Below, one piece after another: positions 13,829 to 33,320 of a stretch of DNA of 34,291 bases (positions are counted from its first letter, which is position 1; every line of letters starts with the position of its first letter). The stretch is from a bacterium. Its GTDB lineage: Bacteria > Sysuimicrobiota > Sysuimicrobiia > Sysuimicrobiales > Humicultoraceae. The notes under the pieces were generated by a model. That model was not told the DNA's origin. It made no database searches and saw only the letters and a list, made by a program, of their open reading frames with translations. The stretch covers positions 1 through 34,291 of the forward strand of contig JBGQGY010000027.1 of NCBI GenBank assembly GCA_041497675.1, written 5' to 3'. The translations under genes were made by a program, and so were the position numbers.

Positions 13829-14680
13829 GTGTCGTCGGCCTGGCTGGAATGGGTGAACGCCCTCCTGCGCTGGATCCATGTGGTCGCGGGCATCATGTGG
13901 ATCGGCGACTCGCTGCTCTTCATGTGGATCGACAGCCATCTGCATCCCGATCCCCAGTCGCGTAAGGACGTCAACGGCGTCACCTGGCTGCTCCACGGCG
14001 GGGGGTACTACCAGCTCGAAAAACGACTGCTGATTCCGGGGCGTCTGCCACCGTCCCTTCGATGGTTCTGGCTCGAGGCCACCACAACGTGGCTGTCCGG
14101 CTTCCTGCTCCTGATTGTCGTGTACTATGTGAGCGCCTCGGTCCTCATGGTGGATCGCGACGCCGCGCTGACTCCCGAACAGGCGGTCGCCGCGGGCGTG
14201 GGAATGCTGCTGGCCGGATGGTTCGTCTACGACGGCCTCTGGCGGTCGCTGGCCCGGCGCCCGGCATTGGCGGCGGGCGCGTCCCTTGCGCTCCTGGTCG
14301 CGATAAACTACGCGGCCACCCATGTGATGAGTGCCCGCGCGGCGTTTCTACATGTGGGGGCCATGGCCGGCACGATCATGGCGGCCAACGTGTGGGTCCA
14401 CATCATCCTGCCGCAGCGGCAGATGGTGCGCGCGGCGCGTGAAGGCCGCGAGGTCGACTACTCGCCTGGCCGGCACGCGAAAACTCGGTCGACGCACAAC
14501 ACCTATCTGACGTTCCCTGCCATCTTCTTGATGATCAGCAACCACTTCCCGAGGATCTACGGCGGTCCGCAGCGGTGGCTCGTGCTGACGTTGATCTGCC
14601 TCCTTGGGGCAGGCGTGCGCCACCTGATGCTCGTCGGCGACAAGCCGCGCACGGGGTATAATGAGACGCTAGGTCAGTGA
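13829..14680 (+). CDS. PuuD-like (urate hydroxylase, Urate_ox_N) membrane protein without the cytochrome c domain
   Basis: RWIHVVAGIMWIG, W..HGGGYY..EK, WF..EA..TWLSGF, HVGAMAGTIMAANV...I.P.Q, AK.RS.HN.Y.T.P..F.MISNHFP; 283 aa, no CxxCH. Confidence 0.8.
   Translation: MSSAWLEWVNALLRWIHVVAGIMWIGDSLLFMWIDSHLHPDPQSRKDVNGVTWLLHGGGYYQLEKRLLIPGRLPPSLRWFWLEATTTWLSGFLLLIVVYYVSASVLMVDRDAALTPEQAVAAGVGMLLAGWFVYDGLWRSLARRPALAAGASLALLVAINYAATHVMSARAAFLHVGAMAGTIMAANVWVHIILPQRQMVRAAREGREVDYSPGRHAKTRSTHNTYLTFPAIFLMISNHFPRIYGGPQRWLVLTLICLLGAGVRHLMLVGDKPRTGYNETLGQ
14657..14662 (+). promoter_or_regulatory. Consensus -10 hexamer, probable promoter of the yvlD-rapZ-yvcK unit
   Basis: Perfect TATAAT in GC-rich DNA, 29 bp upstream of ATG 14692 and its SD GAGGAGG; -35 poor. 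Confidence 0.55.
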
Positions 14681-17460: not shown

Positions 17461-17533
17461 TTCGGCGCTGAACACAGCCGCGTGAACGCGGGGGCGCAAC
17501 CGGTGGCCCGCGCGTGTGTGACGGGTGACGAGA

Positions 17534-17893
17534 ATGCTGCTGGTTGACTGGCTGTACGTGGGCGTGTTCGCGATCGTGGGGCTGCTGATGGCCGCGTTGC
17601 CGCTGGCGATCGTGTGGGCCCTGGCGCCGCGCTTGGCGCTTCCCCAGAAGCGCATGACATATGAATCTGGCGTCGTGCCCTTCGGTCAGGCCTGGGCGCA
17701 GTTCAATGTGCGCTACTATCTGTTCGGTCTGATCTTCGTGATCTTTGACGTCGAGGTCATCTACCTGTATCCCTGGGCCATCGTCTTCCGCCAGCTGGGC
17801 AAGTTTGCGTTCGTGGAAATGCTGATCTTTCTGGTCATCCTGATGATCGGCTTGGCCTACGCGTGGCGGAAAGGCGCGCTCGAATGGGCGTAG
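17534..17893 (+). CDS. nuoA: NADH-quinone oxidoreductase subunit A
   Basis: K..TYESG..P.G loop, [32 protein letters not shown]. Confidence 0.95.
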
Positions 17894-17924
17894 CATCGGG
17901 TCCGGGACGCCGGAGGACCTCAGG

Positions 17925-18929
17925 GTGGAGGTAAGCTGGCCGCTCGAGATCGCGAGGGCCGTCGGGCTGGCGGTCGTGATGTTCACCTTCATCGCGGTTG
18001 TCGCCGCGATGCTCGGGGTGCTGCTCGAACGCAAGATCGGCGGATGGATTCAATCCCGGTTGGGACCCAAACACGTCGGGCGCCAGGGTCTGCTGCAGAC
18101 GGTGGCGGACACCATCAAGTTGCTGCAGAAGGAACATATCACCCCGCACGCCGCCGACGGGCTGATCTTCAACACCGCGCCGTTGATCGTCGCCGTCGCC
18201 GGCCTCCTCGACTGGATCGTCATTCCGTTCGGCGTCGTGCACATCGGTGGGACCACGGTGCCGCTGGTGGTCCGGGACCTCAATATCGGCGTGCTCTTCT
18301 TCGCGGCCATGGCGTCCCTGACCGTGGTCGGGATCCTGGCCGGCGGGTTCGCCTCGAACAACAAGTATTCGTTGCTCGGCGGTCTGCGGTCGGCCTCGCA
18401 GATGATCAGCTACGAGTTGCCGCTCGCCACGGCACTCATTGCGGTGGCGATGCAGGCGGGCACGCTTTCGACCGTCGGGATCGTGAAAGCGCAAGAAGGC
18501 TGGTTTGGGTCGTTTGCGTTCTCACAGTTTCCGGCATTTGTCATCTTTCTGATCGCGGCGACCGCGGAAGTCAATCGCGTACCCTTCGATTTGCCGGAGG
18601 CTGAATCGGAACTGGTGGCGGGCTACTTCTCCGAATATACCGGGATGCGCTTCGCCCTGTTCCAGTTGGGCGAGTATGCCGAGATGTTCGCGATGGCGGC
18701 GCTGGCCACCACGCTGTTCCTGGGCGGGTGGAAGGGGCCGCTGCTGCCCCCGCTGATCTGGTTCATGATCAAGATGTACGCGGTGGTGTTCTTCCTGATG
18801 TGGACCCGCTGGACGTTCCCGCGGCTGCGGCTGGACCAGCTGTTGAACCTCTCGTGGAAGGTACTGCTGCCGGCAGGACTCGTCTGGATTCTCCTGACCG
18901 GGTTCGCGATCACGTTTCTGGCCAAGTAA
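17925..18929 (+). CDS. nuoH: NADH-quinone oxidoreductase subunit H
   Basis: ERK....Q.R.GP...G..GLLQ..AD..KLL.KE, SNNKYSLLGGLRSASQMISYE, AEVNRVPFDLPEAESELVAGY..EY.G, R...PR.R.DQL. Confidence 0.96.
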   Translation: MEVSWPLEIARAVGLAVVMFTFIAVVAAMLGVLLERKIGGWIQSRLGPKHVGRQGLLQTVADTIKLLQKEHITPHAADGLIFNTAPLIVAVAGLLDWIVIPFGVVHIGGTTVPLVVRDLNIGVLFFAAMASLTVVGILAGGFASNNKYSLLGGLRSASQMISYELPLATALIAVAMQAGTLSTVGIVKAQEGWFGSFAFSQFPAFVIFLIAATAEVNRVPFDLPEAESELVAGYFSEYTGMRFALFQLGEYAEMFAMAALATTLFLGGWKGPLLPPLIWFMIKMYAVVFFLMWTRWTFPRLRLDQLLNLSWKVLLPAGLVWILLTGFAITFLAK

Positions 18930-18932
18930 CCC

Positions 18933-19424
18933 ATGGGCGAATTGGCGGTCTTTGTCATTCTCTCGGCGATCACGCTGGCGTCGGCCGTCGTGGTCGTGAA
19001 TTCGGGCAACGTCGTGCGCGCGGCCCTGGCGCTTGTGCCCACGTTTCTCGGCGTGACCGGGTTCTATATCATGCTGCAGGCAGAGTTCGTGGCGGGCATC
19101 CAGGTGCTGATCTACGCCGGCGCGATCACGGTGCTGATTCTCTTCGTGATCATGCTGACCGAAGGGGGCACCGGGCAGCGCGTCCGCCAGCGCAACGAGC
19201 AGGTGCCGCTGGGGCTGCTGACGTCGGCGGCGCTGGCGGCGATCCTCATCTCGGTGCTGGCGCGCACCGAGTGGCCGAAGTCGACCGCAACGCTGCCGCA
19301 GTACACCGCGAGCGCGATTGGCACCACGTTTCTCACCGACGCGGTGCTCCCGTTCGAGGTGACCAGCTTGGTGCTGCTCGTTTCGCTGATGGGCGCGATT
19401 ATCATCGCGCGGCGCGAGAAGTAG
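18933..19424 (+). CDS. nuoJ: NADH-quinone oxidoreductase subunit J
   Basis: NVVRAAL.L, LQAEFVAGIQVLIYAGAITVLILFVIML, IG..F....LPFEVTSLVLLVSLMGAIIIAR. Confidence 0.94.
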   Translation: MGELAVFVILSAITLASAVVVVNSGNVVRAALALVPTFLGVTGFYIMLQAEFVAGIQVLIYAGAITVLILFVIMLTEGGTGQRVRQRNEQVPLGLLTSAALAAILISVLARTEWPKSTATLPQYTASAIGTTFLTDAVLPFEVTSLVLLVSLMGAIIIARREK

Positions 19425-19444
19425 AGACGGGGAGGGGCGGGCGC

Positions 19445-19756
19445 GTGCAGGTCGGTCTCACGCACTACCTGGTGGTCAGCGCGCTGCTGTTCTGCTTGGG
19501 CCTTTACGCGATGCTCACCCGCCGGAACGCCGTAGCGATCCTGATGGGCGTCGAGTTGATGCTCAACGCGGCCAACGTCAACCTGGTGGCGTTCAACAAG
19601 TTCGTCGCACCGGCGGCGGTGTCGGGGCAGGTATTCGCCCTAGTGGTGATCACTCTGGCCGCGTGCGAGGCGGGGGTAGGCCTGGCGCTCGTGATGGCCG
19701 CCTATCGCAACCTCGAGACGATTCACGTCGATGAGATCAATGTGATGAAGTGGTAG
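19445..19756 (+). CDS. nuoK: NADH-quinone oxidoreductase subunit K
   Basis: 3' part of ORF 18728..19756: YLVVSALLFCLG...RRN...LMGVELMLNAANVN, GQVFAL....AACEAGVGLA; SD GGAGGG before GTG 19445. Confidence 0.95.
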   Translation: MQVGLTHYLVVSALLFCLGLYAMLTRRNAVAILMGVELMLNAANVNLVAFNKFVAPAAVSGQVFALVVITLAACEAGVGLALVMAAYRNLETIHVDEINVMKW

Positions 19757-19760
19757 GCTG

Positions 19761-21704
19761 ATGCTCAACCTGGCGTGGCTGATCCCGCTGTTCCCGCTTG
19801 CGGCCTTCGTGCTGATCATCTGGCGCGGCCGCCGGCTTCCCGGTGAGGGCGCTTACATCGCGGTGGCCGGCATGGCCCTGGCCGCGGCGATGTCCATCGG
19901 GATCTTGTTCAACATGCTCGGCCACCCCCAGCCGGTCGACATGAACGTGAAATGGATGATGTTGGGCACGGTGCCGCTGGAGCTCGGGATCAGGGTCGAC
20001 CAGTTGACCACGATCATGTTGCTCGTGGTAACAGTTGTTGGGTCGATGATCTTTACGTACTCGATCGGGTACATGCACGGTGATCCGCGCTATCCTCGGT
20101 TCTTCGCCTATTTGTCATTGTTTGGCTTTTCGATGCTCGTGCTGGTGCTGGCGAACAATCTCCTGCTGCTCTACGCGGGGTGGGAGCTTGTCGGGCTGTG
20201 CTCGTACCTGCTGATCGGTTTCTATTTCGAGAAGCCGTCGGCGGCGCGGGCGTCGATGAAGGCGTTCTTGACCACGCGCGTCGGCGACTTCTTCATGTTT
20301 CTGGGGATCTTGCTGATCTTCTTCCACCTGGGGACGTTTCGGTTCGAAGAGATCTTCACCAAAGTGCATGAAGGGGCGCTCAAGGACTTGACCGTGGGTG
20401 GGTGGCCGCTCCTCACCGTGGCCGCGGTGCTGCTTTTTGGCGGCGCCGTGGGCAAATCGGCGCAGGTGCCGCTTCATACCTGGCTGCCGGACGCGATGGA
20501 GGGCCCGACACCCGTTTCAGCCCTGATCCACGCCGCGACCATGGTGGCCGCGGGCGTGTATCTGGTCGCGCGTACCTACACGCTGTTTTTCGCGTCGACG
20601 GGCCAGGAAGCGCTGCACGTGGTCGCCTGGATCGGGGGCATCACGGCGCTGATGGCTGCGACCATCGGGGTCGTCCAAAACGACATCAAACGCGTGCTGG
20701 CCTATTCGACCATCAGCCAACTCGGGCTGATGATGATGGGTTTGGGCGTGCTGGGGTATACGGCGGGCATGTTCCACTTGATGACGCATGCCTTCTTCAA
20801 GGCGCTGTTGTTCCTGGGCGCGGGTAGTGTCATCCATGCCATGCACACGAACGACATCAAGGACATGGGCGGTCTGGCCAAGGTCATGCCGTCGACGTAC
20901 TGGACCTTCCTGATCGGCACGCTCGCACTGGCCGGCGTGTTCCCGTTTGCCGGCTTCTGGAGCAAGGACGAAATCCTGTTGGAGGCGTTCCACCACAACA
21001 CGGCGCTTTTTGCGATGGGCGCGCTCACCTCGTTTCTGACGGCGTTCTACATGTTCCGCGTCATCTTCTACACGTTCACGGGGACGCTGCGCAGCCATTC
21101 CGCGCATCCGCATGAGAGTCCAAACGTCATGACCCGGCCGCTGTGGGTGCTGGCAATCTTCTCGGTGTTCATCGGCCTGGTCGGGGCGCCGTTCCTGGGG
21201 AACCCGTTCCACAAGTTCATCCACTTCGAAGGCATCGAGGCGATTCCGTTCGACGTGACGCTGGCACTCGCGTCACTCGCGATTGCGGGGGCCGGGATCC
21301 TTTCCGCGGCGGCCGTGTACTACTGGAAGGTCATCCCGTCTGCGTCGCTGCGCCGGGCCGTGGGGCCGCTGCACGCCCTGGTCGTCAACAAGTACTACTT
21401 CGACGAAGTGTACCAGGCCGTGTTTGTGCGCGGGACGCTGTGGATCGGCCAAGCGCTGCGCGCGTTCGACGTCTACGTCATCGACATGCTGGTGAACATG
21501 GTGGGGCTCGGCGGTATCGGGCTGGCAAACCTCTACGGGTGGTTTGACACTCACATCGTAGATGGCATGGTGAACTTGACGGCCTACGTGGTGGGCGCCG
21601 CGGGCGGGCGGCTGCGGTACTGGCAGACCGGACGCGCACAGAACTACCTGCTCGTGATCGCGCTCGGCGTGATCATTTTAGTCGCGGCCGGGCTGCTCCG
21701 GTGA
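19761..21704 (+). CDS. nuoL: NADH-quinone oxidoreductase subunit L with lengthened lateral helix
   Basis: YSIGYM, RFFAY..LF, GWELVGLCSYLLIGF, GKSAQVPLHTWLPDAMEGPTPVSALIHAATMV, DIKRVLAYSTISQLG, HLMTHAFFK, GFWSKDEI, QTG..QNY. Confidence 0.96.
   Translation: MLNLAWLIPLFPLAAFVLIIWRGRRLPGEGAYIAVAGMALAAAMSIGILFNMLGHPQPVDMNVKWMMLGTVPLELGIRVDQLTTIMLLVVTVVGSMIFTYSIGYMHGDPRYPRFFAYLSLFGFSMLVLVLANNLLLLYAGWELVGLCSYLLIGFYFEKPSAARASMKAFLTTRVGDFFMFLGILLIFFHLGTFRFEEIFTKVHEGALKDLTVGGWPLLTVAAVLLFGGAVGKSAQVPLHTWLPDAMEGPTPVSALIHAATMVAAGVYLVARTYTLFFASTGQEALHVVAWIGGITALMAATIGVVQNDIKRVLAYSTISQLGLMMMGLGVLGYTAGMFHLMTHAFFKALLFLGAGSVIHAMHTNDIKDMGGLAKVMPSTYWTFLIGTLALAGVFPFAGFWSKDEILLEAFHHNTALFAMGALTSFLTAFYMFRVIFYTFTGTLRSHSAHPHESPNVMTRPLWVLAIFSVFIGLVGAPFLGNPFHKFIHFEGIEAIPFDVTLALASLAIAGAGILSAAAVYYWKVIPSASLRRAVGPLHALVVNKYYFDEVYQAVFVRGTLWIGQALRAFDVYVIDMLVNMVGLGGIGLANLYGWFDTHIVDGMVNLTAYVVGAAGGRLRYWQTGRAQNYLLVIALGVIILVAAGLLR
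21465..21620 (+). repeat. Degenerate 78-bp (26-aa) tandem repeat in the NuoL lateral helix
   Basis: FDVYVIDMLVNMVGLGGIGLANLYGW (from 21465) and FDTHIVDGMVNLTAYVVGAAGGRLRY (from 21543); TGGTGAAC recurs at 21490 and 21568, 78 bp apart. Confidence 0.85.
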
Positions 21705-21768
21705 CCACGCTTGTCCCGAGGCCGGTTGAGCACATCTCGTGTTGTTATATGAGGAGGACATTGGGCTG

Positions 21769-23277
21769 ATGGAGAGCCACCTGCTGACGATCACCGTGTT
21801 CCTCCCGCTGCTTGGCGGGCTGGTCGTCTTGCTGATTCCCAAGCAACACGAAGCCACGATGAAGCAGGTGGCCCTGATTGCCGCAGTGCTGGCGTTTCTG
21901 GCGTCGCTGTGGCTGTTGGGTGTCTTCGAGATCGGCAAGGCCGGGATGCAACTCCAGGAGCGGTTCCTGTGGGTTCCCGGTATCGGCGCGAACTACCACC
22001 TGGGGATCGACGGACTCAGCCTCCCCCTGATCATCCTCACGACGCTACTCTCTCTGCTCTCCATCGTGTACTCCTGGCGCATCGACATGCGTCTCAAAGA
22101 GTATCTGTTCCTCTTCCTGCTGCTGGAGACCGGTATGCTGGGCGTGTTCGTCGCGCTCGACTTCTTCCTGTTCTACGTGTTCTGGGAAATCACGCTGGTG
22201 CCTATGTACTTCTTGATCGGCATCTGGGGCGGGCCGCGCCGCGAGTACGCGGCCATCAAGTTCTTCCTCTACACGCTGGTCGGCTCGCTCGCCATGCTGC
22301 TGGCCATCCTGCTGCTGTACTTCAACGCCGACCCGCACACGTTTGGCATTCTCGAGTTGATCAAGCAGCAGCCGCTGGCCAAGGCGCCGGTTCTGGCGGG
22401 CCTGGCGTTCTGGGGATTCTTCCTCTCGTTCGCCATCAAAGTGCCGATGTGGCCGTTCCATACCTGGCTGCCCGATGCCCACGTCGAGGCGCCGACGGCC
22501 GGCAGCGTGATCCTGGCGGGTGTCCTGCTGAAACTCGGGACCTACGGCTTCATCCGGGTTAGCCTCCCGATGCTGCCCGAGGCGTTCAAGGAGTTCGCAC
22601 CGATCGTCGCCATCCTCGCGCTTATCGGCATCGTCTACGGCGCGCTGGTGGCCATGGCGCAACCCGACTTGAAGAAGCTCGTCGCGTACTCGAGCGTGAA
22701 CCACATGGGCTACGTCATGCTGGGCATCTCGGCCGCGGCCGCCGCCGTTGGGGTGCCCGAAAAGGCCCACGCGGCGACCATCGCCCTCAACGGGGCTGTG
22801 TTTGAGATGATCGCGCACGGCGTAATTACCGGCGCGTTATTCTTGATCGTCGGCGTGATCTATGACTACCGGGCGCACACCCGCGGCGTCAACGACTTCG
22901 GCGGTCTGGGCGCGCGGCTCCCCGTCTATACCGGCGTGACCATGGTCGCGATGCTGGCGTCGTTGGGTCTGCCGGGGTTGATGGGATTCGTCGCTGAGTT
23001 CCTGATCTTTGTCGGATCGTTCGGCATCTTTCCGCTCCTGACGACGGCGGCCGTGACGGGCGTGATCTTCTCTGCCGCGATGTTTCTCTGGACCATCCAG
23101 CGCATCTTCTTGGGCCCGCTGAATCCCAAGTGGGCCGATCTGGCCGACATCGATCGGCGGGAGGTGCTGGCGCTGGCCCCGCTGGCCGCGCTCATGCTGC
23201 TCTTCGGGGTGTATCCGAAGCCGCTGCTGGACATGATCAATGCCGCGATGACGACGTTGATGACCGTCGTCAAGTAG
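21769..23277 (+). CDS. nuoM: NADH-quinone oxidoreductase subunit M
   Basis: LGIDGLS, FYVFWE..LVPMYFLIGIWG, AAIKFFLYT, AIKVPMWPFHTWLPDAHVEAPTAGSVILAGVLLKLG.YG, KKLVAYSSVNHMG, GLPGLMGFVAEF; SD GAGGAGG 21751-21757 supports ATG 21769. Confidence 0.96.
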   Translation: MESHLLTITVFLPLLGGLVVLLIPKQHEATMKQVALIAAVLAFLASLWLLGVFEIGKAGMQLQERFLWVPGIGANYHLGIDGLSLPLIILTTLLSLLSIVYSWRIDMRLKEYLFLFLLLETGMLGVFVALDFFLFYVFWEITLVPMYFLIGIWGGPRREYAAIKFFLYTLVGSLAMLLAILLLYFNADPHTFGILELIKQQPLAKAPVLAGLAFWGFFLSFAIKVPMWPFHTWLPDAHVEAPTAGSVILAGVLLKLGTYGFIRVSLPMLPEAFKEFAPIVAILALIGIVYGALVAMAQPDLKKLVAYSSVNHMGYVMLGISAAAAAVGVPEKAHAATIALNGAVFEMIAHGVITGALFLIVGVIYDYRAHTRGVNDFGGLGARLPVYTGVTMVAMLASLGLPGLMGFVAEFLIFVGSFGIFPLLTTAAVTGVIFSAAMFLWTIQRIFLGPLNPKWADLADIDRREVLALAPLAALMLLFGVYPKPLLDMINAAMTTLMTVVK

Positions 23278-23287
23278 AGTCGGGTCG

Positions 23288-24730
23288 ATGCGGATCCCTG
23301 TCGAAGAACTGGCCCTGCTGGCCCCGGAGTACTGGCTCGCCGCCCTCGGGGTCCTGCTGGTCCTCCTGGATCTCTTCACAGCGGATGACCAGAAAGTGAT
23401 CGTCGGGTGGGCGGCCATCGCGGGTCTGGCGCTGAGTCTGATCCCGATCCTCGGGATGTTCGGCGCTCCCGGCCGGACCGTCTTTTTCAATACGTACGCC
23501 GTCGACGGGTTTGCGGTCTTCTTCAAGATCATCATCGTCGTCTCGACGATCCTGGTGATCCTCGCGGCCATGGACTACTTCCGCGGGCAGACCCGGTTCG
23601 AGGGCGAAGTGTACATTTTGATGACCTTTGCCGCGCTGGGGCTGTTCTTGATGGCGGGCAGCGCCGATTTGATCCTGCTGGCGCTGTCGATCGAGTTCGT
23701 GAGCCTGGCGTCGTACGTCATGGCCGGGTACTTCAAGATGAACGCCAAGAGCAACGAGGCCGGTATCAAGTACTTTCTCTTCGGCGCCGGCGCGTCGGCC
23801 CTGATGATCTATGGGTTTTCCATCCTCTACGGCCTGACCGGTGAGACCGGCCTCTACGCGATCGCCGAAAAGGTGAAGTCGAGCCCGCAGCCCGCGCTCA
23901 TCGTTGCGATCGGTTTGGCGCTGGCCGGGTTTGGCTTCAAGATCTCGATGGTCCCGTTCCACCAGTGGACGCCGGACGTCTATGAGGGCGCGCCGACACC
24001 GATCGCGGCGTACCTGTCGGTGGCGTCGAAGGCCGCCGGGATCGCGGCGCTCGTGCGTCTGCTGCTGGTGTCGGTCGCGCCGAGCGCGGTGGATTGGGTC
24101 ACGCTCATCGCGGGGCTGTCGGCGCTCAGCATGACCGTCGGCAACCTCATGGCCCTGCCGCAACGCAACATCAAGCGCATGCTGGCCTATTCGAGCATCT
24201 CGCATGCCGGCTTTCTCTTGATGGGTGTCGCCGCGTATAAGGGGACCTTCGGGGCGCCGGGCTTGCTGATCTACATCCTCGCCTACACCTTTACGAATCT
24301 CGGCGCGTTTTTCGTTGCGACCCAAGTCGAGGAACGACTGCGGTCCGAAAGCATTTCCGACTATGCCGGGCTGGCCCAGCGCTCACCGATGCTGGCGTTC
24401 CTGATGGCGTTGTTCATGTTGTCCCTGACCGGCATCCCGCCGACCGCGGGGTTCTTTGGAAAGTTCTACATCTTTGGGGCCGCTATCAACAACGGTCTCC
24501 TGTGGTTGGCGATCGTCGGGATCGTGAACAGCACCATCTCGCTCTACTACTACGTGGCGGTGATTCGCGCCATGTACCTCCTGCCGCCCGCCTCTTCAGA
24601 ACGCATCGCCGAAACGCCCGCGCTCGGCGTCGCCCTTGCTATCACCGGGGTGGCCACGCTGGTCATGGGCATCTTCCCCCAACCATTCATCGACCTCGTC
24701 GGGAAGGCAGCGTTGTTCTTGCGCTTCTGA
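23288..24730 (+). CDS. nuoN: NADH-quinone oxidoreductase subunit N
   Basis: SIEFVSL.SY, SNEAGIKYF, GFKISMVPFHQWTPDVYEGAPTP, ASKAA, NIKRMLAYSSISHAG, SLTGIPPTAGFFGKFY, SLYYY. Confidence 0.96.
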   Translation: MRIPVEELALLAPEYWLAALGVLLVLLDLFTADDQKVIVGWAAIAGLALSLIPILGMFGAPGRTVFFNTYAVDGFAVFFKIIIVVSTILVILAAMDYFRGQTRFEGEVYILMTFAALGLFLMAGSADLILLALSIEFVSLASYVMAGYFKMNAKSNEAGIKYFLFGAGASALMIYGFSILYGLTGETGLYAIAEKVKSSPQPALIVAIGLALAGFGFKISMVPFHQWTPDVYEGAPTPIAAYLSVASKAAGIAALVRLLLVSVAPSAVDWVTLIAGLSALSMTVGNLMALPQRNIKRMLAYSSISHAGFLLMGVAAYKGTFGAPGLLIYILAYTFTNLGAFFVATQVEERLRSESISDYAGLAQRSPMLAFLMALFMLSLTGIPPTAGFFGKFYIFGAAINNGLLWLAIVGIVNSTISLYYYVAVIRAMYLLPPASSERIAETPALGVALAITGVATLVMGIFPQPFIDLVGKAALFLRF

Positions 24731-24884: not shown

Positions 24885-25241
24885 ATGAGCACGCATAAGG
24901 CGGATCACGGGCACGACCATCGCACCGGCGACCATCTCCTCAACCTCATCGCCGAGAAAGAACGAGAGCTTGAAGGCCGCGTCAGCGCCGCACGCCAGGA
25001 GGCGGCGTCGATCGCCGCCCAGGCGCGCACCGAAGCCGAGCGCATCTTGTCCGAGACCCGCCAGCAGATGGTGGTCTTGACCCGCGAGCACGAGCAGCGT
25101 CTTGAAGCCGAGACCGCCCGGATCCAGCGCGAACTCATGAGCCAAGGCCGCGCTAATGTCGAGACGCTCCGCCGGCAGGCGGCGTCCCGCCGCGCGGCAG
25201 CCGTCCAGCTCGTCGTCGACCACGTCATCACAGGCGTTTGA
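24885..25241 (+). CDS. V/A-type ATP synthase peripheral stalk subunit G (also named H)
   Basis: Charged, Ala-rich coiled coil (IAEKERELEGRVSAARQEAASIAAQARTEAERIL); first gene of the operon as in Thermus. Confidence 0.8.
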   Translation: MSTHKADHGHDHRTGDHLLNLIAEKERELEGRVSAARQEAASIAAQARTEAERILSETRQQMVVLTREHEQRLEAETARIQRELMSQGRANVETLRRQAASRRAAAVQLVVDHVITGV

Positions 25242-25244
25242 CCC

Positions 25245-27188
25245 ATGATCGTTGAGATGAACCGGGTGCTCCTCTTCGGCCCGAAGCGCCTGCTTGCCGG
25301 CGTGCTGGACGAAGTGCAGCGCATTGGTGCCGTCCACATCGATCGTATCGAGGCCGAGGAAGGCCCGCTCGCCGCGATGGGGGTGGACCAGGAGGCGGCG
25401 GCAGAACAGGCCGCCCTCGAACGCCTACGCGTCCGGGTCGACGGACTACTCGGTCTCTTGCCCGAGGTCCCCGGCGAGCCCACTAGGAGTGGCGACCCGA
25501 CGCCGACCGGCATCGATGCGATTGACGCAGCCGTCGGCGCGATCGAGGCTGACATCCAGGGCCCGAGCAAGCGGCGCGTCGAGCTTCAGGAGGAACTCGA
25601 ACTCATTCACATGTACGAAGGCGCCGTCCGCGTCCTGGCACCACTGCACGGCGCGCTCGCGGGCAGCCGGTCGCTCAAGACCGTCGGGTTCATCCTCCGC
25701 AGTAAAGACCTCACCGTCGTCGCCGCGCTGCGCCATCAGCTCGCCGAGATGACCGAAGGGCGCGTCGAGGTCGTGAGTCGCGTGATCGAGGAAGGCAAGA
25801 TCGGCGTGGTGGTGGCCTTCCTGCACCGCGATGCCGAGACCATCCAACGGTTCCTGACGCAGGCCGGGATCTCCGAACTGCGGCTCCCAGAACGCTACGG
25901 CGGGATGGGGCCCATGGAAGCGATCCGCCTCATGGAGCAGCGACTCGCCGCGCTGCCGGCTGAACTGGATGCGGTACGCAACGCGCTGACGGCCGCTGCG
26001 CGGCGATACCGGCCGCAGCTAATGGCGCTGCGGGCGCCGGTCGCCGACCGGCTGGCCCAGCTGCGCGTCCTGCCCAACCTGGCGCAGTCGAGATACGCGT
26101 TTGTCGTACACGGCTGGGCGCCGGCGGCAACAATGACGGAGATTCGCGCGACGCTGCGCCGGCGGTTCGGCGACGACGTCGTCGTCTACGATGCCCCGGC
26201 CGATCCACACGAAGCGGCACAGGTCCCGGTGCTGCTGGACAATTCCCCTGCGCTTCGGCCGTTCCAGCGGCTGTTGGGATTGTTCAGGCCGCCACGCTAC
26301 GGCACGCTCGATCCCACGCTCTACCTGGCGATCTTTTTCCCAATTTTCGTCGGCGTCGTCATTGGCGACGTCGCCTACGGCGCGCTGCTCTTTGCCTTCG
26401 GGTGGTGGATGCGCAACAAGGCGCGAAAAGGGGAGACCTGGGTCGTTCCTCTTGTGGGGTTTCGCCTGTCGCCTGTCGTCCTCGTCGATGCCTCCTGGAT
26501 CATCCGGGTCATGTCGACGTGGACCATCATCTTCGGCGTCTTCTATCTGGAGTTCTTCGGGAACCTGCTGGAGCACCATCTTGGCTGGCACCCGATTTTC
26601 AACAGGGTCGAGCTCACGACGGCCTTCTTCGCTTTGACCATCTCCCTCGGGATCGTACAGGTCATGTTAGGCTACGTGCTGCACCTCATCCTGGCCGCTC
26701 GGCACAAGCACGCCTTCGGTATCGTCGAGTCGCTGGCCATGATCTGCGGCGTGCTGGGCTTGCTCGCGGTGCTCGGGGCCATGGGGAAGCAGTTGCCGCA
26801 GGCACTCTTCACGCCCGGCGTCTTCTTGCTGATGGCGTTCCTGGCGTTCGTGCTGATCGGTGTGGCGCTCAATCGGCTTGCGCTGATGTGGCTGCTGGAA
26901 GCGATCTCGGGCATGGGCAACGTGTTGTCCTATGCCCGGTTATTTGGCGTCGGGCTGGCCGCGGCGGTACTGGCGAACGTCGCGAATCAACTCGGCGGCC
27001 TGGTGGGGTCCATCTGGGTCGGCATCGTGGTCGGCATCTTCATCCAGATGGTTTTCTTCATCTTTACGATCCCGGGCCACATCATCCAGCCGGCCCGTCT
27101 CAATTGGGTCGAGTTCCTGACCAAGGTGAAATACCACGATGAAACCGGCAACTCGTATCGTCCGCTCGAAAAAACAGGAGGTGACTAG
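25245..27188 (+). CDS. atpI: V/A-type ATP synthase subunit I (a)
   Basis: GW.P, VPVLLDN....PFQ, PRYGTLDPT, GDVAYG, GNVLSYARL (essential Arg), GHIIQPARLNWVEF. Confidence 0.93.
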   Translation: MIVEMNRVLLFGPKRLLAGVLDEVQRIGAVHIDRIEAEEGPLAAMGVDQEAAAEQAALERLRVRVDGLLGLLPEVPGEPTRSGDPTPTGIDAIDAAVGAIEADIQGPSKRRVELQEELELIHMYEGAVRVLAPLHGALAGSRSLKTVGFILRSKDLTVVAALRHQLAEMTEGRVEVVSRVIEEGKIGVVVAFLHRDAETIQRFLTQAGISELRLPERYGGMGPMEAIRLMEQRLAALPAELDAVRNALTAAARRYRPQLMALRAPVADRLAQLRVLPNLAQSRYAFVVHGWAPAATMTEIRATLRRRFGDDVVVYDAPADPHEAAQVPVLLDNSPALRPFQRLLGLFRPPRYGTLDPTLYLAIFFPIFVGVVIGDVAYGALLFAFGWWMRNKARKGETWVVPLVGFRLSPVVLVDASWIIRVMSTWTIIFGVFYLEFFGNLLEHHLGWHPIFNRVELTTAFFALTISLGIVQVMLGYVLHLILAARHKHAFGIVESLAMICGVLGLLAVLGAMGKQLPQALFTPGVFLLMAFLAFVLIGVALNRLALMWLLEAISGMGNVLSYARLFGVGLAAAVLANVANQLGGLVGSIWVGIVVGIFIQMVFFIFTIPGHIIQPARLNWVEFLTKVKYHDETGNSYRPLEKTGGD

Positions 27189-27189
27189 G

Positions 27190-27513
27190 TTGAAGAAAGG
27201 ACTGTTCTTGCTTGGACTGACCGCCGTCGTCTTGTTGCTGGGGGCCTCCTTGGCGCTTGCGGCAGAGGCGACCCCCGAGGGGGGCAAGCAACTTACCCTG
27301 GCGCACGGGTTGCTGGGCCTCGCGGCGGCGCTGGCGGTCTTCGGTGGCGCCATCGGCACCGCATGGGCGCAGTCTCGCATCGGCGCGGCGGCGGCCGGCG
27401 CCATCGCCGAGCGTCCGGAGATCGGCGGCCAGATGCTGATCTTCCTCGTGCTTCCCGAGACGCTCATCATCTTTGGCTTCCTCGTCGCGTTCTTTATCAT
27501 TGGCAAGATCTAG
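27190..27513 (+). CDS. atpK: V/A-type ATP synthase proteolipid subunit K/L (c) with signal peptide
   Basis: AQSRIGAAAAGAIAE.P...LIFLVLPETLIIFGF; SD AGGAGG 27176-27181 gives TTG 27190; N-terminus MKKGLFLLG...ASLALA is signal-peptide-like. Confidence 0.93.
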   Translation: MKKGLFLLGLTAVVLLLGASLALAAEATPEGGKQLTLAHGLLGLAAALAVFGGAIGTAWAQSRIGAAAAGAIAERPEIGGQMLIFLVLPETLIIFGFLVAFFIIGKI

Positions 27514-27520
27514 CGTTGGC

Positions 27521-28102
27521 ATGAGCTCCGAACTCATCACGCTGCTGGAGCGCGAGGCCGCGGCCGAGCGGGAGAATATTCTCACCGAGGCGCGAGCCCA
27601 GACCGAGACGGTCGTGGCGGAGGCCCGCCGGCAGGCCCAAGAACTGCTGGCGGCCCACAAGGAACGGCTGGAGGCGGAGGCCCGGGTGGCCCGGGTGCGG
27701 GCGCAGAGCACCGCGCACCTCCGCGCCTCCTCGCAGGTCTTGCAGGCGAAGGAAGAGGAGATCGCGCAGGTCTTTGCGCGCGCCGAGGCCGAATTGGCCC
27801 GGATCCCCGGCGACGGGCAACGGTACCCGGCCATCCTGCGCGCGTTCATCGACGAAGGGTTGGGCGGTCTCGAGCGTGCGGGTGTCGTCACGGTCAACCC
27901 GGCCGACCAGGCCGCCGCACAGGCGTTGCTGAAAGAGCGCGGGTCGGCCGTCACCGTGCGCACCGATCCCGCGATAGTCGGCGGGGTCAAGGTGACCTCG
28001 CCCGACGGGCGATTTGTCTTGACCAATACCCTGGCGTCGCGTCTGGAGCGGGCCCGCCCGATCGTCGCGGCGGACGTGGCACGGGCCCTGTGGGAGTCAT
28101 GA
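27521..28102 (+). CDS. atpE: V/A-type ATP synthase subunit E
   Basis: N-terminal coiled coil (LLEREAAAERENILTEARAQ), VNPAD, IVGGVKV.S.DG....NTLASRL; ATG 27521 follows the subunit K stop. Confidence 0.9.
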   Translation: MSSELITLLEREAAAERENILTEARAQTETVVAEARRQAQELLAAHKERLEAEARVARVRAQSTAHLRASSQVLQAKEEEIAQVFARAEAELARIPGDGQRYPAILRAFIDEGLGGLERAGVVTVNPADQAAAQALLKERGSAVTVRTDPAIVGGVKVTSPDGRFVLTNTLASRLERARPIVAADVARALWES

Positions 28103-28111
28103 CCTCGGCGA

Positions 28112-29143
28112 ATGCCTGACTTTCCGTACATCAACGCCCGTGTGCGCGCGATGCGCAGCCGGCTGATGACCCCCGGCCAGCTTGAAGAGTCGCTGGGCGC
28201 GCCGACATTGGACGCCTTTCTGCAGGGACTCTCCACGACGCCCTACAGCTTCGACCTGCAAGAAGCGCTGCTACGGTACGAGGGGCTCCGTGCGGTCGAT
28301 GAGGCATTGTCGCACAGCCTGGCGAGGACCACGCGGACAATATTGGGATTTGCCGACGGGCGGGCGCGCGACCTCATCAGCCTCGTGCTGCTGCGCTGGG
28401 ATCTGGCGAACCTCCGGGTCATCGTCCGTGGCAAACGCAGCGGCCGGCCAACCGACGAGATCGTCCAGGCGCTGCTGCCGGCGGGCAACCTGAGCGACGT
28501 GGTGCTCAAAGAAATGGCCGGGTACCCGGACATCGCGGCGCTGGCGGGGACGCTCGAGTCATTGGACCATCCCTTGGCGGGTCCGCTCGCGCAAGGGGTC
28601 GCCGCGTATGCGAAGACCAAAGATGTTATGGAGCTCGAGCTGCATCTCGAGCGCGGGTATGCCGAATTCGCTCTGCGGCAGGCGAAGCGGCTCGGTCAGG
28701 ACGCGGCAGTCCTGGGCGAGTTCTTCCAGGCCGAGGTCGACGCCTCCAACGTGAAGACGGCGCTGAAACTGGCCTCGGCGGACGGCCTCTCGGAGGAGCG
28801 GCGTCTGCAGTTCTTCATCCCGGGCGGCGCCGGCGTCAACGACCGGCTCTTTGCGGCGTTGTCGTCCGCACAAACGCAGGCGGCGGCGTGGGAGCGGCTC
28901 CGCGCCCACCGATTCCCGATCAAAGAACTGCCACAGGATCTGGTCGCTTTCGAGCGCGAGCTCGACGGGCGGATCGGCAAGGCGCTCGCGGCCCGCTATC
29001 GGGGTGACCCGCTTGGCGTCGACATCGTGCTCGGGTATCTGGCGATGAAATCGGCGGAAGTGAGCAACCTCCGGATGATCGCACGGGGCAAGTTCCTGGG
29101 GCTCCCGCGCGAAGCCGTGAGGAAGGAGATGCTCGTTGTATAA
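28112..29143 (+). CDS. atpC: V/A-type ATP synthase subunit C (d)
   Basis: F.YINARVRAMRSRL, RWDLANLRVIVRG, FIPGG, YLAMKSAEVSNLRMIARGK. Confidence 0.92.
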   Translation: MPDFPYINARVRAMRSRLMTPGQLEESLGAPTLDAFLQGLSTTPYSFDLQEALLRYEGLRAVDEALSHSLARTTRTILGFADGRARDLISLVLLRWDLANLRVIVRGKRSGRPTDEIVQALLPAGNLSDVVLKEMAGYPDIAALAGTLESLDHPLAGPLAQGVAAYAKTKDVMELELHLERGYAEFALRQAKRLGQDAAVLGEFFQAEVDASNVKTALKLASADGLSEERRLQFFIPGGAGVNDRLFAALSSAQTQAAAWERLRAHRFPIKELPQDLVAFERELDGRIGKALAARYRGDPLGVDIVLGYLAMKSAEVSNLRMIARGKFLGLPREAVRKEMLVV

Positions 29144-29453
29144 GCTCGGCATCATCGCCGATCCTGAGAGTGCAACCGGTTTTCGGCTGGCCGGCGCGGA
29201 AGTGCGCGAGGCCACCTCACCACAGGCGGCCCTCGAGCACCTTCGACACTTCGTGCAACACGACTACGGATTGGTGGCGATCATTGAATCGCTGCTCGTG
29301 GGCACCGAGGAGCAGCGGTTTCGCCTGATGCGCGGCCGCGATCTGCCGATCATCCTCCCGATCCCGGCGCCGCAGGCCGAGATCGAGAGCGGCGAGGCAT
29401 ACATTGCGCGGTTGGTCAAAGAGCATATCGGCTTCTACGTGAAGTTGCGATAG
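29136..29453 (+). CDS. atpF: V/A-type ATP synthase subunit F
   Basis: [35 protein letters not shown] start with SD AAGGAG. Confidence 0.92.
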
Positions 29454-29466
29454 CGAGGGGGTTGTG

Positions 29467-31227
29467 ATGGCGACGCAGGGGAGCGTTATCAAGATCGCCG
29501 GCCCGGCGGTCATCGCGCGCGGGATTCCCGGGGCCCGCATGTACGACCTGGTCCGCGTGGGTCAGGAGGGTTTGCTCGGGGAGATTATCCGCCTCGACCG
29601 TGAGACCGCGTTTATCCAGGTGTACGAAGACACCTCGGGTCTGCGGGTCGGCGAGGCGGTGGTCAGCAGCGGCACGCCGCTGTCGCTCGAGCTGGGCCCC
29701 GGGCTGTTAACGAGCATCTTTGACGGGATCCAGCGCCCGCTGGAGAGCATCCGCAAGCAGAAAGGCGACTTTATCGCGCGCGGCGCCGTGACCGAGGCAC
29801 TCGACCGGGCGAAGAAGTGGGCATTTACGCCGTCCGTCAAACAAGGCCAGAAGGTTGCCCCTGGCGATGTGATCGGCGTGGTCAAAGAGTTTCAGTTCGA
29901 GCATCGCATCATGGTGCCGCCCACCTCGAAAGGCGGCGACGTGACCGAGATCCGCTCCGGCGAGTTCACGGTCGATGAGGTCATCGGCCGTCTCTCCGAC
30001 GGCACCGAGTTGCGCCTCATGCACCGCTGGCCGGTTCGCTCACCACGGCCGGTGGCGCGCAAGCTCGACCCGCGCGAGCCCTTCATCTCGGGCCAGCGTA
30101 TCATCGACGTGCTCTTCCCGGTGGCCATGGGCGGCGCCGCCGCGATTCCCGGACCGTTTGGCTCGGGTAAGACCGTCATGCAGCAGACGCTGGCCAAATG
30201 GTCCAACGCGGACGTGATCGTCTACGTGGGCTGTGGTGAGCGCGGCAACGAGATGACCCACGTGCTCGACGAGTTCCCCGAGCTGGAAGACCCACGCACC
30301 GGCCGGCCGCTGATGGAGCGCACGGTCATCATCGCCAACACGTCGAACATGCCGGTCGCGGCGCGCGAAGCCTCGGTCTACACCGGCATCACGATGGCCG
30401 AGTACTGGCGCGACCAAGGCTACAAGGTGGCCCTGATGGCCGACTCGACCAGCCGCTGGGCAGAGGCCATGCGCGAGATCTCCTCCCGCCTCGAAGAGAT
30501 GCCCGCCGAGGAAGGCTATCCACCGTACCTCTCGAGCCGGCTGGCAGCCTTCTACGAGCGCGCGGGCCGTGTGATCTGTCTGGGGACGCCCGAGCGCAAC
30601 GGCTCGGTCACCGTCGTGGGCGCGGTCTCACCGCCCGGCGGCGACCTCTCTGAGCCGGTGACGCAGTCGACGCTGCGGATCACGGGCACCTTCTGGTCGC
30701 TCGACGCGAGCCTGGCGTATCGCCGGCACTTCCCGGCGATTCACTGGCTGCGATCGTACAGTCTCTACACGCCGCTCTTCAAAGAGTGGTACCGTGAGAA
30801 TATGCCCGAGGATTTCGAGACGCTGCGCGATCGGGCGTCGGCCTTGCTCCAGCGTGAGTCCGAACTGCAAGAGATCGTGCAGCTGGTCGGGCCGGATGCC
30901 CTTCAGGACGATCAGCGACTGATCATCGAAGCCGGCAAGATGTTGCGTGAGGATTTCCTGCAGCAATCGTCGTTCTCCGAGATCGACGCCTACTGCCCGA
31001 TGGAGAAAGCGTACGGTATCCTCCAGGCGATCACGGCCTTCTATGATGAAGCCGGCGCGGCGCTCAAACGCGGCATGCTGATGGACGACATCTTGAACCT
31101 GAAGCAAATCGAAGAGATCGCGCGGATGAAGGAAATCCCCAACGATCAATTTAGCGCCTACATCAAGGGTTGGCTGCAACAGCTGCCTGAGGCGTTCGGC
31201 GCGAAGGCCGCGGCGGGAGGCGCATAG
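29467..31227 (+). CDS. atpA: V/A-type ATP synthase catalytic subunit A
   Basis: IQVYEDT.GL, WPVR.PRP, P-loop [62 protein letters not shown]; no intein seen. Confidence 0.97.
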
Positions 31228-31231
31228 CTCC

Positions 31232-32647
31232 ATGCAACTGACGACGAAGCAGTACCAATCGATCTCGTACATCTCGGGCCCGCTGATGTTCGTGGAGGGG
31301 GCGCACGATCTCCCTTACGGGGCGATCGTCAACATCCACCTGCCCGAGGGCGGCATCCGCGGCGGCCAGGTCATCGAAGTGTCGGAGAAGAACGCGGTCG
31401 TCCAGGTGTTCGAGGAGACGGCGGGACTCGACCTGGCGCGGACATCGGTGAGCCTCCGCGAGGACGTCGCGCGGATCTCCTGCTCGCGGGAGATGATCGG
31501 CCGCCGGTTCAACGGCCTGGGCGATCCTATTGACGGACTCCCGCCAATTATCCCCGAAAAGCGCCTGCCCATCATCGGCGCCCCGATCAACCCGGTGGCG
31601 CGGCAGCGCCCGCAGGAATTCATCCAGACCGGTATCTCGTCGATCGACGGTCTGAACACCCTCGTGCGCGGGCAGAAGCTGCCGATCTTTTCGGGCGCAG
31701 GCCTCCCGCACAATGAGATCGCCGCGCAAATCGCGCGCCAGGCCAAGGTCTTGGGCGGGGCCGAAGAGTTCTCGGTCGTGTTCGGGGCGATGGGCATCAC
31801 GCAGCGTGAGGCGGCGTACTTCATCGAACAATTCGAGTCCACCGGGGCGTTGGCGCGTAGCGTCGTTTTCCTCAATCTGGCGGACGATCCTGCCATCGAG
31901 CGGTTAATGACCCCGCGTATGGCGCTGACCACCGCCGAGTATCTGGCGTTCGATCTCGAGATGCAAGTGTTGGTCATTCTCACCGACATGACCAACTACT
32001 GTGAGGCGCTGCGTGAGATCGGCGCAGCACGGGAAGAGATCCCCGGCCGCCGTGGGTACCCGGGCTACATGTACACCGACCTGGCGTCGATCTATGAGCG
32101 GGCCGGCCGCGTGCACGGGCGCAAGGGATCGATCACGCAGTTGCCGATCCTGACGATGCCCGACGACGACATCACCCATCCGATCCCCGACCTGACGGGC
32201 TACATCACCGAGGGCCAGATCGTCCTCGCGCGGGCGCTGCACCGCAACGGCATCTATCCACCGATCAACCCGCTGCCCAGCCTGTCGCGGCTGATGAATG
32301 ACGGCATCGGGGCGAAGCGTACCCGCCCTGACCACTCCAATGTGAAGGACCAGGTGTTTGCGTCGTACGCGAACGGCGTCGACCTGCGCCGCCTGGTGGC
32401 CATCATCGGCGAAGAGGCCCTGACCGATCGCGACCGGCTGTACCTGAAGTTCGCCGAAGCGTTCGAGAGGGAGTTCCTGGGGCAGGGAATGACCGATCGC
32501 TCGATCGAAGAGACCCTGACGCTGGGGTGGAAGCTACTCTCGGTGTTCCCGAAGGGCGAATTGAAGCGCATCAAACAGGATCACGTGGACAAGTACTACT
32601 TCGGCGAGCAGATGGACCAGCTTTGGGAAGACAAGGTGCGCCTGTAG
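31232..32647 (+). CDS. atpB: V/A-type ATP synthase subunit B
   Basis: [81 protein letters not shown]. Confidence 0.97.
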
Positions 32648-32678
32648 GGCGCAGCGGATCCAGCAGGGAGCCGGCAGC

Positions 32679-33320
32679 ATGGCCGACATGATCAGCCCGA
32701 CCCGCATGAACCTGCTGCAGCGCCGCGACCAGCGGCGTGTGGCCGAGCAGGGCGTCGACCTCTTGAAGCGCAAGCGTGACGCCTTGGTCGCGGACTTCTT
32801 CAAAATTGTGAGAGCGTCGCTGGCCGCCCGGGAACGGCTGGCGGCGGCCTGCCGTGAGGCCTACGTGATGCTGTCCGTGGCCAAAGCGGTCGAGGGCCGC
32901 GAAGCGCTCGAAGCGGCCGCGCTGCCCGCGGCGCGCGACATCACCGTGGAGATCGACATCCGCAACGTCTGGGGTACGAAGATCCCCGAAGTCACCGTCA
33001 CCCCGATCCGCCGCCAATTGCTGGACCGCGGCCAGAACCCCGTCGCCACCAGCGCCCGGGCCATCGCCAGCACCGCCAACTTCGAAGAAGTCGTCGAAGC
33101 CATCCTCGCGGTGGCGGCCACCGAGATCAAGCTGCGCAAGATCGGCGAAGAGATCAAGAAGACGACCCGGCGCGTGAACGCCCTGGAGCAGGTGGTCATC
33201 CCGCGGCTGCGGGCGGAGATCCGCTTCATCGCCTCGGTGCTCGAGCAGCGGGCGCGGGAAGATGTGTTCCGGCTGAAGCGTATCAAGAAGAAGCTGGAGG
33301 CCAAGGAAGCGGGGGCGTAG
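32679..33320 (+). CDS. atpD: V/A-type ATP synthase subunit D
   Basis: PTRMNL, G.DLLKRKRDAL, NVWG...P, EEIKKTTRRVNALEQVVIP, LEQRARED.FRLKRIK. Confidence 0.96.
   Translation: MADMISPTRMNLLQRRDQRRVAEQGVDLLKRKRDALVADFFKIVRASLAARERLAAACREAYVMLSVAKAVEGREALEAAALPAARDITVEIDIRNVWGTKIPEVTVTPIRRQLLDRGQNPVATSARAIASTANFEEVVEAILAVAATEIKLRKIGEEIKKTTRRVNALEQVVIPRLRAEIRFIASVLEQRAREDVFRLKRIKKKLEAKEAGA

Follow-up and report, generated by a model that had tools for sequence, protein, structure and literature searches.

A three-unit lateral helix in NuoL beside a single nuoM gene in a bacterial complex I operon

The variant of respiratory complex I known as '2M' was reportedly described by Chadwick et al. in 2018 (ISME J). 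The locus considered here has one mark of that variant and lacks another. It lies on a 34,291-nucleotide (nt) stretch of Sysuimicrobiota DNA (contig JBGQGY010000027.1; hereafter the window), where the nuoL gene of a membrane-arm operon encodes a lateral helix, helix HL, that is longer by 26 residues than that of canonical NuoL, and where the same operon holds a single nuoM gene.

Published statements are given here as they stand in passages of the papers cited. Helix HL is said there to be an element that 'connects TMH7s' of the antiporter-like subunits (PMC7419157), and 2M complexes are described as combining a 26-residue insertion in this helix with a second NuoM (PMC9040806; PMC6606698). 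In the Chloroflexi version the second nuoM is adjacent to the first and nuoBCDI lie apart from the operon (PMC7117926); the Chloroflexus cluster is written nuoABCDHJKLMMN (PMC8004040), and N. moscoviensis has a nuoM and a nuoL that are non-operonal (PMC6606698). As far as these passages go, the window resembles the 2M systems in three respects: its NuoL is about 26 residues longer inside helix HL, its operon matches the split Chloroflexi type with nuoBCDI elsewhere, and its cluster is without nuoE, nuoF and nuoG, as are the 2M clusters of Nitrospira and Chloroflexus. The feature that defines 2M complex I, a second adjacent nuoM, is lacking in the window and in all 28 surveyed loci that have the longer helix and reach nuoN.

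A direct precedent for such a mismatch between helix and nuoM number is provided by Complex_I_1 and Complex_I_2 of 'Ca. Manganitrophaceae', which have canonical gene content and order together with the 26-residue insertion in helix HL, a combination left unexplained in the passages concerned (PMC9040806). Like the window cluster, each of these has, by the same passages, a single nuoM; unlike the window lineage, their hosts are Nitrospirota, and the genomes also carry a two-nuoM cluster able to lend a subunit. That paper alone came up when the literature was searched for further cases in which a lengthened NuoL goes with one nuoM, and the passages found of a hidden Markov model survey of complex I (PMC12361115) do not contain the point.

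The third unit of helix HL

In window NuoL the stretch between transmembrane helices 15 and 16 (TM15 and TM16) consists of three 26-residue units, of which canonical NuoL has units 1 and 3 alone (Table 1). The original prediction had noticed a motif, FDVYVIDMLVN and then FDTHIVDGMVN, that occurs twice at a period of 26 codons between the landmarks NKYYFDE (residues 543-549) and QTG...QNY (622-624 and 627-629), and its coordinates were exact: the codon for F569 starts at 21465 and that for F595 at 21543, 78 nt apart. The interval from K544 to Q622 is 78 residues, compared with 52 in a two-unit relative, locus L004 (counted by eye), and the distance from the YFDE aspartate, D548, to Q622 is 74, well outside the two-unit canonical length of about 48-50.

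Comparison with solved structures leads to the same length difference. Against NdhF of T. elongatus (6hum_F), window NuoL has a net gain of 26 residues, the query advancing from 562 to 595 while the chain advances from 597 to 604. The second copy is the aligned partner of both 6hum_F and the M. smegmatis chain 8e9g_L, and the first that of the Paracoccus chain 8qby_L. When 60 rows were aligned with MAFFT, a single clean gap, 25-27 residues long, appeared in each of the two-unit rows. None of the solved chains matched has a three-unit helix, all of them having two units, so that the earlier expectations of a single motif in canonical NuoL and of a net insertion of about 26 residues both held. 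The M. smegmatis chain was considered as a possible three-unit structure, related Actinomycetota loci being three-unit, and was set aside because it has two.

The residues that flank the insertion are those of the ordinary helix. Q622, T623, Y629 and G636 are at least 90% conserved in two-unit and three-unit rows alike, and D548, D596, D601 and G624 are invariant across both helix forms. Both ends of the helix are thus canonical, and the extra unit sits in its middle.

The resemblance of the extra unit to its neighbor is faint in the window protein itself. Units 2 and 3 share 4 of 26 residues when compared in the D-register and 5 of 26 in the F-register. A profile of the canonical unit, built from 46 single units, scored 15.3 bits at residues 596-620 and 2.7 bits at 570-582, the latter below the best 5 of 1000 shuffles (3.5-5.3 bits). 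On the window alone, the second motif is not significant. The extra unit becomes significant because of the net insertion of 26 residues, because two profile hits exactly 26 residues apart are found in 108 of 110 relatives (the two misses, P0040 and P0113, are truncated), and because units 2 and 3 share on average 10.6 of 26 residues in the family, against 3.9 of 26 for units 1 and 3. The family consensus begins DVYVIDGAVNAVG... for unit 2 and DLYVVDGLVNLVG... for unit 3; the two units are about equally conserved (entropy 0.96 and 0.95, respectively), and unit 2 keeps the signature of a contact unit, D-x4-D-G-x-V-N. Tandem Repeats Finder reported no DNA-level tandem repeat (0 rows), so that the duplication is old. 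By these comparisons, the extra unit D570-F595 is an old, diverged tandem copy of the canonical second unit.

A model of NuoL was generated by AlphaFold2 with the 60-row alignment, at a mean predicted local distance difference test score (pLDDT) of 90.1. It predicts that residues 544-621 form one continuous helix with no hairpin; pLDDT is 60-84 along this helix and drops to 60-75 over its last third. Foldseek placed the model on NuoL, NdhF and ND5 chains with TM-scores of about 0.8. The root-mean-square deviation was 10-12 Å against full chains and 3.5 Å for three entries: 8qc1_L (a focused refinement), 7aqw_L (a membrane-tip model) and 7ar8_L. The first two may lack the far end of the helix; 7ar8_L, with the same deviation, is described as a complete complex. 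The closest solved structure is cyanobacterial NdhF1 (6hum_F and 6khj_F; 45-46% identity, TM-score 0.81-0.84, and an E-value of 1.4e-151 for 6hum_F). It belongs to NDH-1, which is of an 11-subunit type without NuoEFG, as is the window cluster, and its helix HL has two units. The canonical NuoL proteins of E. coli (3rko, 7z7r), Thermus (4he8), Paracoccus (8qby) and M. smegmatis (8e9g) share the fold and the L-M-N order with the window; canonical bacterial NuoL has two HL units, and profile matches on window NuoL end at the extra unit or skip it.

Helix length and nuoM number among relatives

The window contains one nuoL, one nuoM and one nuoN in L-M-N order, the canonical membrane-arm set, and tblastn with all three proteins revealed no further copy in the six frames of the 34-kilobase (kb) window. 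Together with the NCBIfam names of the genes, this bears out the single nuoM and the L-M-N order of the original prediction. The word 'operon' in that prediction needs a correction: the compact operon nuoA-H-J-K-L-M-N (17525-24730, + strand) has L-M-N with one nuoM as claimed, and it is the membrane-arm half alone. Of the 30 open reading frames (ORFs) of the window, all scanned against Pfam, none has a nuoB, C, D, I, E, F or G domain. These genes are encoded outside the window operon, and the genes for the complex are already scattered. A single nuoM here is therefore weak evidence for a single nuoM genome-wide; one nuoM in the operon does not equal one nuoM in the genome. The same contiguous order, A-H-J-K-L-M-N, is found in relatives L003, L004, L005, L007, L010 and L011; in L006, L009 and the Actinomycetota loci the nuo cluster is interrupted by gaps of the size expected for B/C/D and for I.

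The combination of a long helix with one nuoM was followed through relatives by scanning species-representative genomes with NuoM, using exact 8-residue words and keeping the best 80 of 593 relatives. The NuoL C-terminus is included in 72 of the 80 loci, 65 of which were classed by script and 7 by eye. Two-unit helices occur in 42 of the 72 and three-unit helices in the remaining 30, and the spacing between the YFDE aspartate and QTG falls into two classes, 48-50 and 74-77. Among the three-unit loci, 25 were classed by script at 74-77 and 5 more by eye. They carry eight phylum labels: Actinomycetota (10), Armatimonadota (5), Chloroflexota (4), Acidobacteriota (3), Elusimicrobiota (2), and Sysuimicrobiota, Bacillota and Abditibacteriota (1 each); 3 loci have no label. 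In 28 of the 30 the order is nuoL-nuoM-nuoN with exactly one nuoM, and the other two end at nuoM. The helix/nuoM mismatch is thus not special to the window and is common in several bacterial phyla, and screens that count genes would, as had been foreseen, miss such a case. When the 121 closest NuoL proteins were compared (that of the window included), 109 proved to be three-unit, 11 two-unit and 1 truncated.

A few individual loci should be mentioned. In the Armatimonadota NuoL of L006 (7622-9829) the motifs are 27 residues apart, the sole such case where the pattern found both copies. Locus L065, a three-unit Actinomycetota cluster, is preceded at its contig start (3-806) by a fragment encoding the C-terminus of a further NuoN-like protein; the fragment lies some 1 kb before nuoA and possibly belongs to the end of another nuo cluster. 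Among the 120 matches listed, NuoM homologues of the Anaerolineae locus L010 are either about 497-514 or about 538-588 amino acids (aa) long; two NuoM matches on one contig were looked for among them, and a comparison by eye showed no repeated longest-contig value.

A NuoM tree of 80 rows was made by a quick search, with L061 omitted because its NuoM is partial. The helix-length trait needs three changes on this tree. The window belongs to a starred clade of 30 rows, together with 26 other three-unit rows, one two-unit row (L004) and 2 rows of unscored state, and a second origin of the three-unit helix falls in an Acidobacteriota subclade. The two-unit NuoL proteins of L004 (4358-6253) and P0114-P0124 represent a sister lineage in which the A-H-J-K-L-M-N order is kept; its NuoM is 67% and its NuoL 57-59% identical. 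As judged from the alignment and tree, this lineage has cleanly lost one 26-residue unit, which argues that removal of a unit is possible, yet rare.

Unlinked nuoM genes do exist among the relatives. In Terriglobia, full-length stand-alone nuoM genes occur in L038 (9998-11539), L052 (9968-11536) and L063 (9968-11542), and no further nuo gene lies closer than 10 kb to any of them; their neighbors are unrelated and include a RecQ-type helicase, sulfate-assimilation genes and 2-oxoglutarate dehydrogenase. The three genes are sister, with 99-100% support, to the cluster NuoM of the three-unit Terriglobia locus L078.

The operon and its surroundings

The coordinates of the operon and of the helix units are collected in Table 1.

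Table 1. Genes of the nuo operon and parts of helix HL, by position in the window
Feature	Positions	Strand	Evidence or remark
nuoA, first operon gene	17525..17893	+	Pfam Oxidored_q4 9.5e-36
nuoH, straight after nuoA, no nuoB/C/D between	17925..18929	+	Pfam NADHdh 1.4e-116
nuoJ, no nuoI between H and J	18933..19424	+	Pfam Oxidored_q3 7.5e-36
nuoK, GTG start at 19445	19445..19756	+	Pfam Oxidored_q2 5.1e-28 (enclosing frame)
nuoL, 647 aa	19761..21704	+	NCBIfam NF005141 NuoL, 708.8 bits (cut-off 556); Pfam Proton_antipo_M/N/C
Helix HL unit 1, K544-F569 (KYYFDE...), common to canonical NuoL	21390..21467	+	D548 invariant, 60 rows
Helix HL unit 2, D570-F595, extra unit	21468..21545	+	gap of all two-unit rows; +26 vs 6hum_F
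Helix HL unit 3, D596-W621, equivalent to canonical second unit	21546..21623	+	D596, D601 invariant; profile 15.3 bits
QTG junction (622-624) and anchor helix TM16 (626-646)	21624..21698	+	G624 invariant; AlphaFold2 predicts helix 626-646
nuoL-nuoM spacer, 64 nt, the operon's longest gap	21705..21768	+	holds the operon's best Shine-Dalgarno match, GAGGAGGA
nuoM, 502 aa, sole copy in window	21769..23277	+	NCBIfam TIGR01972, 588.9 bits
nuoN, 480 aa, last operon gene	23288..24730	+	NCBIfam TIGR01770, 413.5 bits

The match of nuoA to the NCBIfam model NF005839 NuoA (E 4.5e-38, 130.3 bits) is under the 163-bit cut-off of that model. The Shine-Dalgarno scores of the last three genes are barely apart (nuoM 4.67, nuoL 4.44 and nuoN 3.94). 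The median L-M spacer is 42 nt in 18 three-unit loci and 4 nt in 31 two-unit loci, a comparison that ignores kinship. Shine-Dalgarno strength and spacer length were considered as a proxy for a doubled dose of NuoM and dropped, the scores being near equal and the loci related.

The nearest proteins in the public collection are labelled Armatimonadota. Upstream of the nuo operon are genes of the TCA cycle (the minus-strand genes sdhA/B and fumC, followed by icd, mdh and sucC/D) and, after them, a rapZ/cofD-like pair. The ORF at 13829-14680, between sucD and the rapZ-like gene, matches Urate_ox_N (PF06181) at 3.1e-98. About 500 nt past nuoN begins a complete V/A-type ATPase operon (25245-33320), with subunits I, E, C, F, A, B and D by Pfam; the 118-aa ORF that precedes its subunit I gene (24885-25241) has no family match.

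How the membrane arm may be built

The length and position of the extra unit suggest that the window complex probably has an arm with four antiporter-like positions, and the reading that we tentatively favor is a four-pump arm whose fourth subunit, a nuoM-like protein, would be encoded outside the operon. One HL unit per subunit, four positions and an unlinked gene are what we infer. Helix HL would be made of repeats of about 26 residues (about 39 Å as helix), one for each antiporter-like subunit strapped to NuoL. The two canonical units would serve NuoM and NuoN, and a tandem duplication of the second would have given three. An extra unit in mid-helix would shift the NuoN-side anchor by about 39 Å from NuoL, leaving room for one more antiporter-like subunit, and the resulting '2M'-type arm would probably add a proton to those moved in each turnover. 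The helix is proposed to reach across three subunit widths beyond NuoL because its ends are conserved, its added length is exactly one unit, the contact signature is kept, and the model predicts a straight helix. The fourth subunit is presumed to be a nuoM paralogue lying elsewhere, as do the Q-module genes nuoB/C/D/I, because the operon is already split and unlinked nuoM genes are documented.

Several results weigh against this proposal. In the passages cited above, published 2M clusters have their second nuoM adjacent to the first rather than unlinked. No second nuoM was found by tblastn within the window, and none lies between nuoL and nuoN in any of the 28 three-unit loci that reach nuoN (0 of 28). 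Apart from the N-like fragment of L065, no other antiporter-like ORF occurs inside the 30 three-unit loci, only 12 of which extend for 7 kb or more in both directions from nuoM. Unlinked nuoM genes account for 3 of the 6 rows of the Acidobacteriota subclade and for none of the 30 rows of the window's own NuoM clade, an absence that is weak because a divergent nuoM paralogue would escape a search by exact 8-residue words with the best 80 of 593 kept. A three-unit helix is found in none of the solved structures matched. Finally, passages on E. coli complex I report that flexible insertions of 6-7 residues are tolerated at several sites in helix HL, G532 and P564 among them, and argue for a clamp role of the helix and against a piston (PMC3274701); added length by itself therefore need not call for a further subunit.

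That clamp role, and the tolerance that goes with it, would suit a plain L-M-N arm held by a longer strap, in which TM16 is carried past NuoN towards NuoK/J/A/H or the helix bulges along the membrane; the added length would then contribute stability, for example in thermophiles, and no pump. We regard this as somewhat unlikely. It accords with the canonical gene content, with the low pLDDT over the last third of the helix, and with the L004 lineage, which went two-unit with its L-M-N order unchanged, so that both lengths fit one gene set. The inserted segment, however, is a conserved copy of a contact unit with its D-x4-D-G-x-V-N signature rather than a loop, and the extra length is exactly one unit of 26 residues in 25 of the 30 loci. 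AlphaFold2 moreover predicts a straight helix in place of a bulge, and conservation of the QTG/TM16 junction in both forms argues for the same docking site.

The fourth position might also be filled without a fourth gene, if one NuoM occupied two neighboring sites (L-M-M-N) and the three-unit helix acted as the ruler that fixes the number. Under such an arrangement the tandem nuoM1-nuoM2 clusters would have come later, by gene duplication after the stoichiometry had doubled. Any 2M complex would have begun with two identical adjacent M subunits, which argues that an M-M contact is feasible, and exactly one nuoM is present in each of the 28 loci that reach nuoN, under eight phylum labels and for a trait that arose at least twice. 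The lack of an unlinked nuoM in the window's NuoM clade points the same way, as do, weakly, the placement of the operon's best Shine-Dalgarno match before nuoM, in a 64-nt spacer, and the longer L-M spacers of three-unit loci; the near equality of the Shine-Dalgarno scores speaks against the former. We know of no complex I relative that uses one antiporter-like gene product twice. Reuse of NuoM in the window lineage and in the other single-nuoM three-unit lineages, with the number of units setting the number of pumps, is in our view distinctly unlikely. The original prediction had also allowed that the insertion is a relic, left by a lineage that was once L-M-M-N, lost one nuoM and retains a decaying extra unit. 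The window's unit 2 is indeed more diverged than those of its relatives (4 of 26 against a mean of 10.6, and 2.7 bits). Across the 108 relatives, however, units 2 and 3 are equally conserved, unit 2 is always in register, the length never drifts outside 74-77, and the clean deletion in L004 and P0114-P0124 shows that a unit can be removed, if rarely; decay is accordingly the most improbable of the explanations considered, by a wide measure.

The H+/2e- ratio of complex I is set by how many antiporter-like subunits it has; this ratio in turn sets the energy yield and the driving force available when electrons flow in reverse to low-potential carriers. If the number of pumps can be read from the length of helix HL, then a ruler that counts 26-residue units between TM15 and TM16 would be a better guide to stoichiometry than counting nuoM genes, and such a ruler would read four pumps in 30 of the 72 loci, whose clusters encode three. 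Either unrecognized split 2M enzymes or enzymes that reuse a subunit would then be present in many bacteria, or it is wrong to connect a longer helix with an additional pump, as is now accepted. Were reuse of NuoM to prove true, a five-proton complex I would be far commoner than gene counts suggest.

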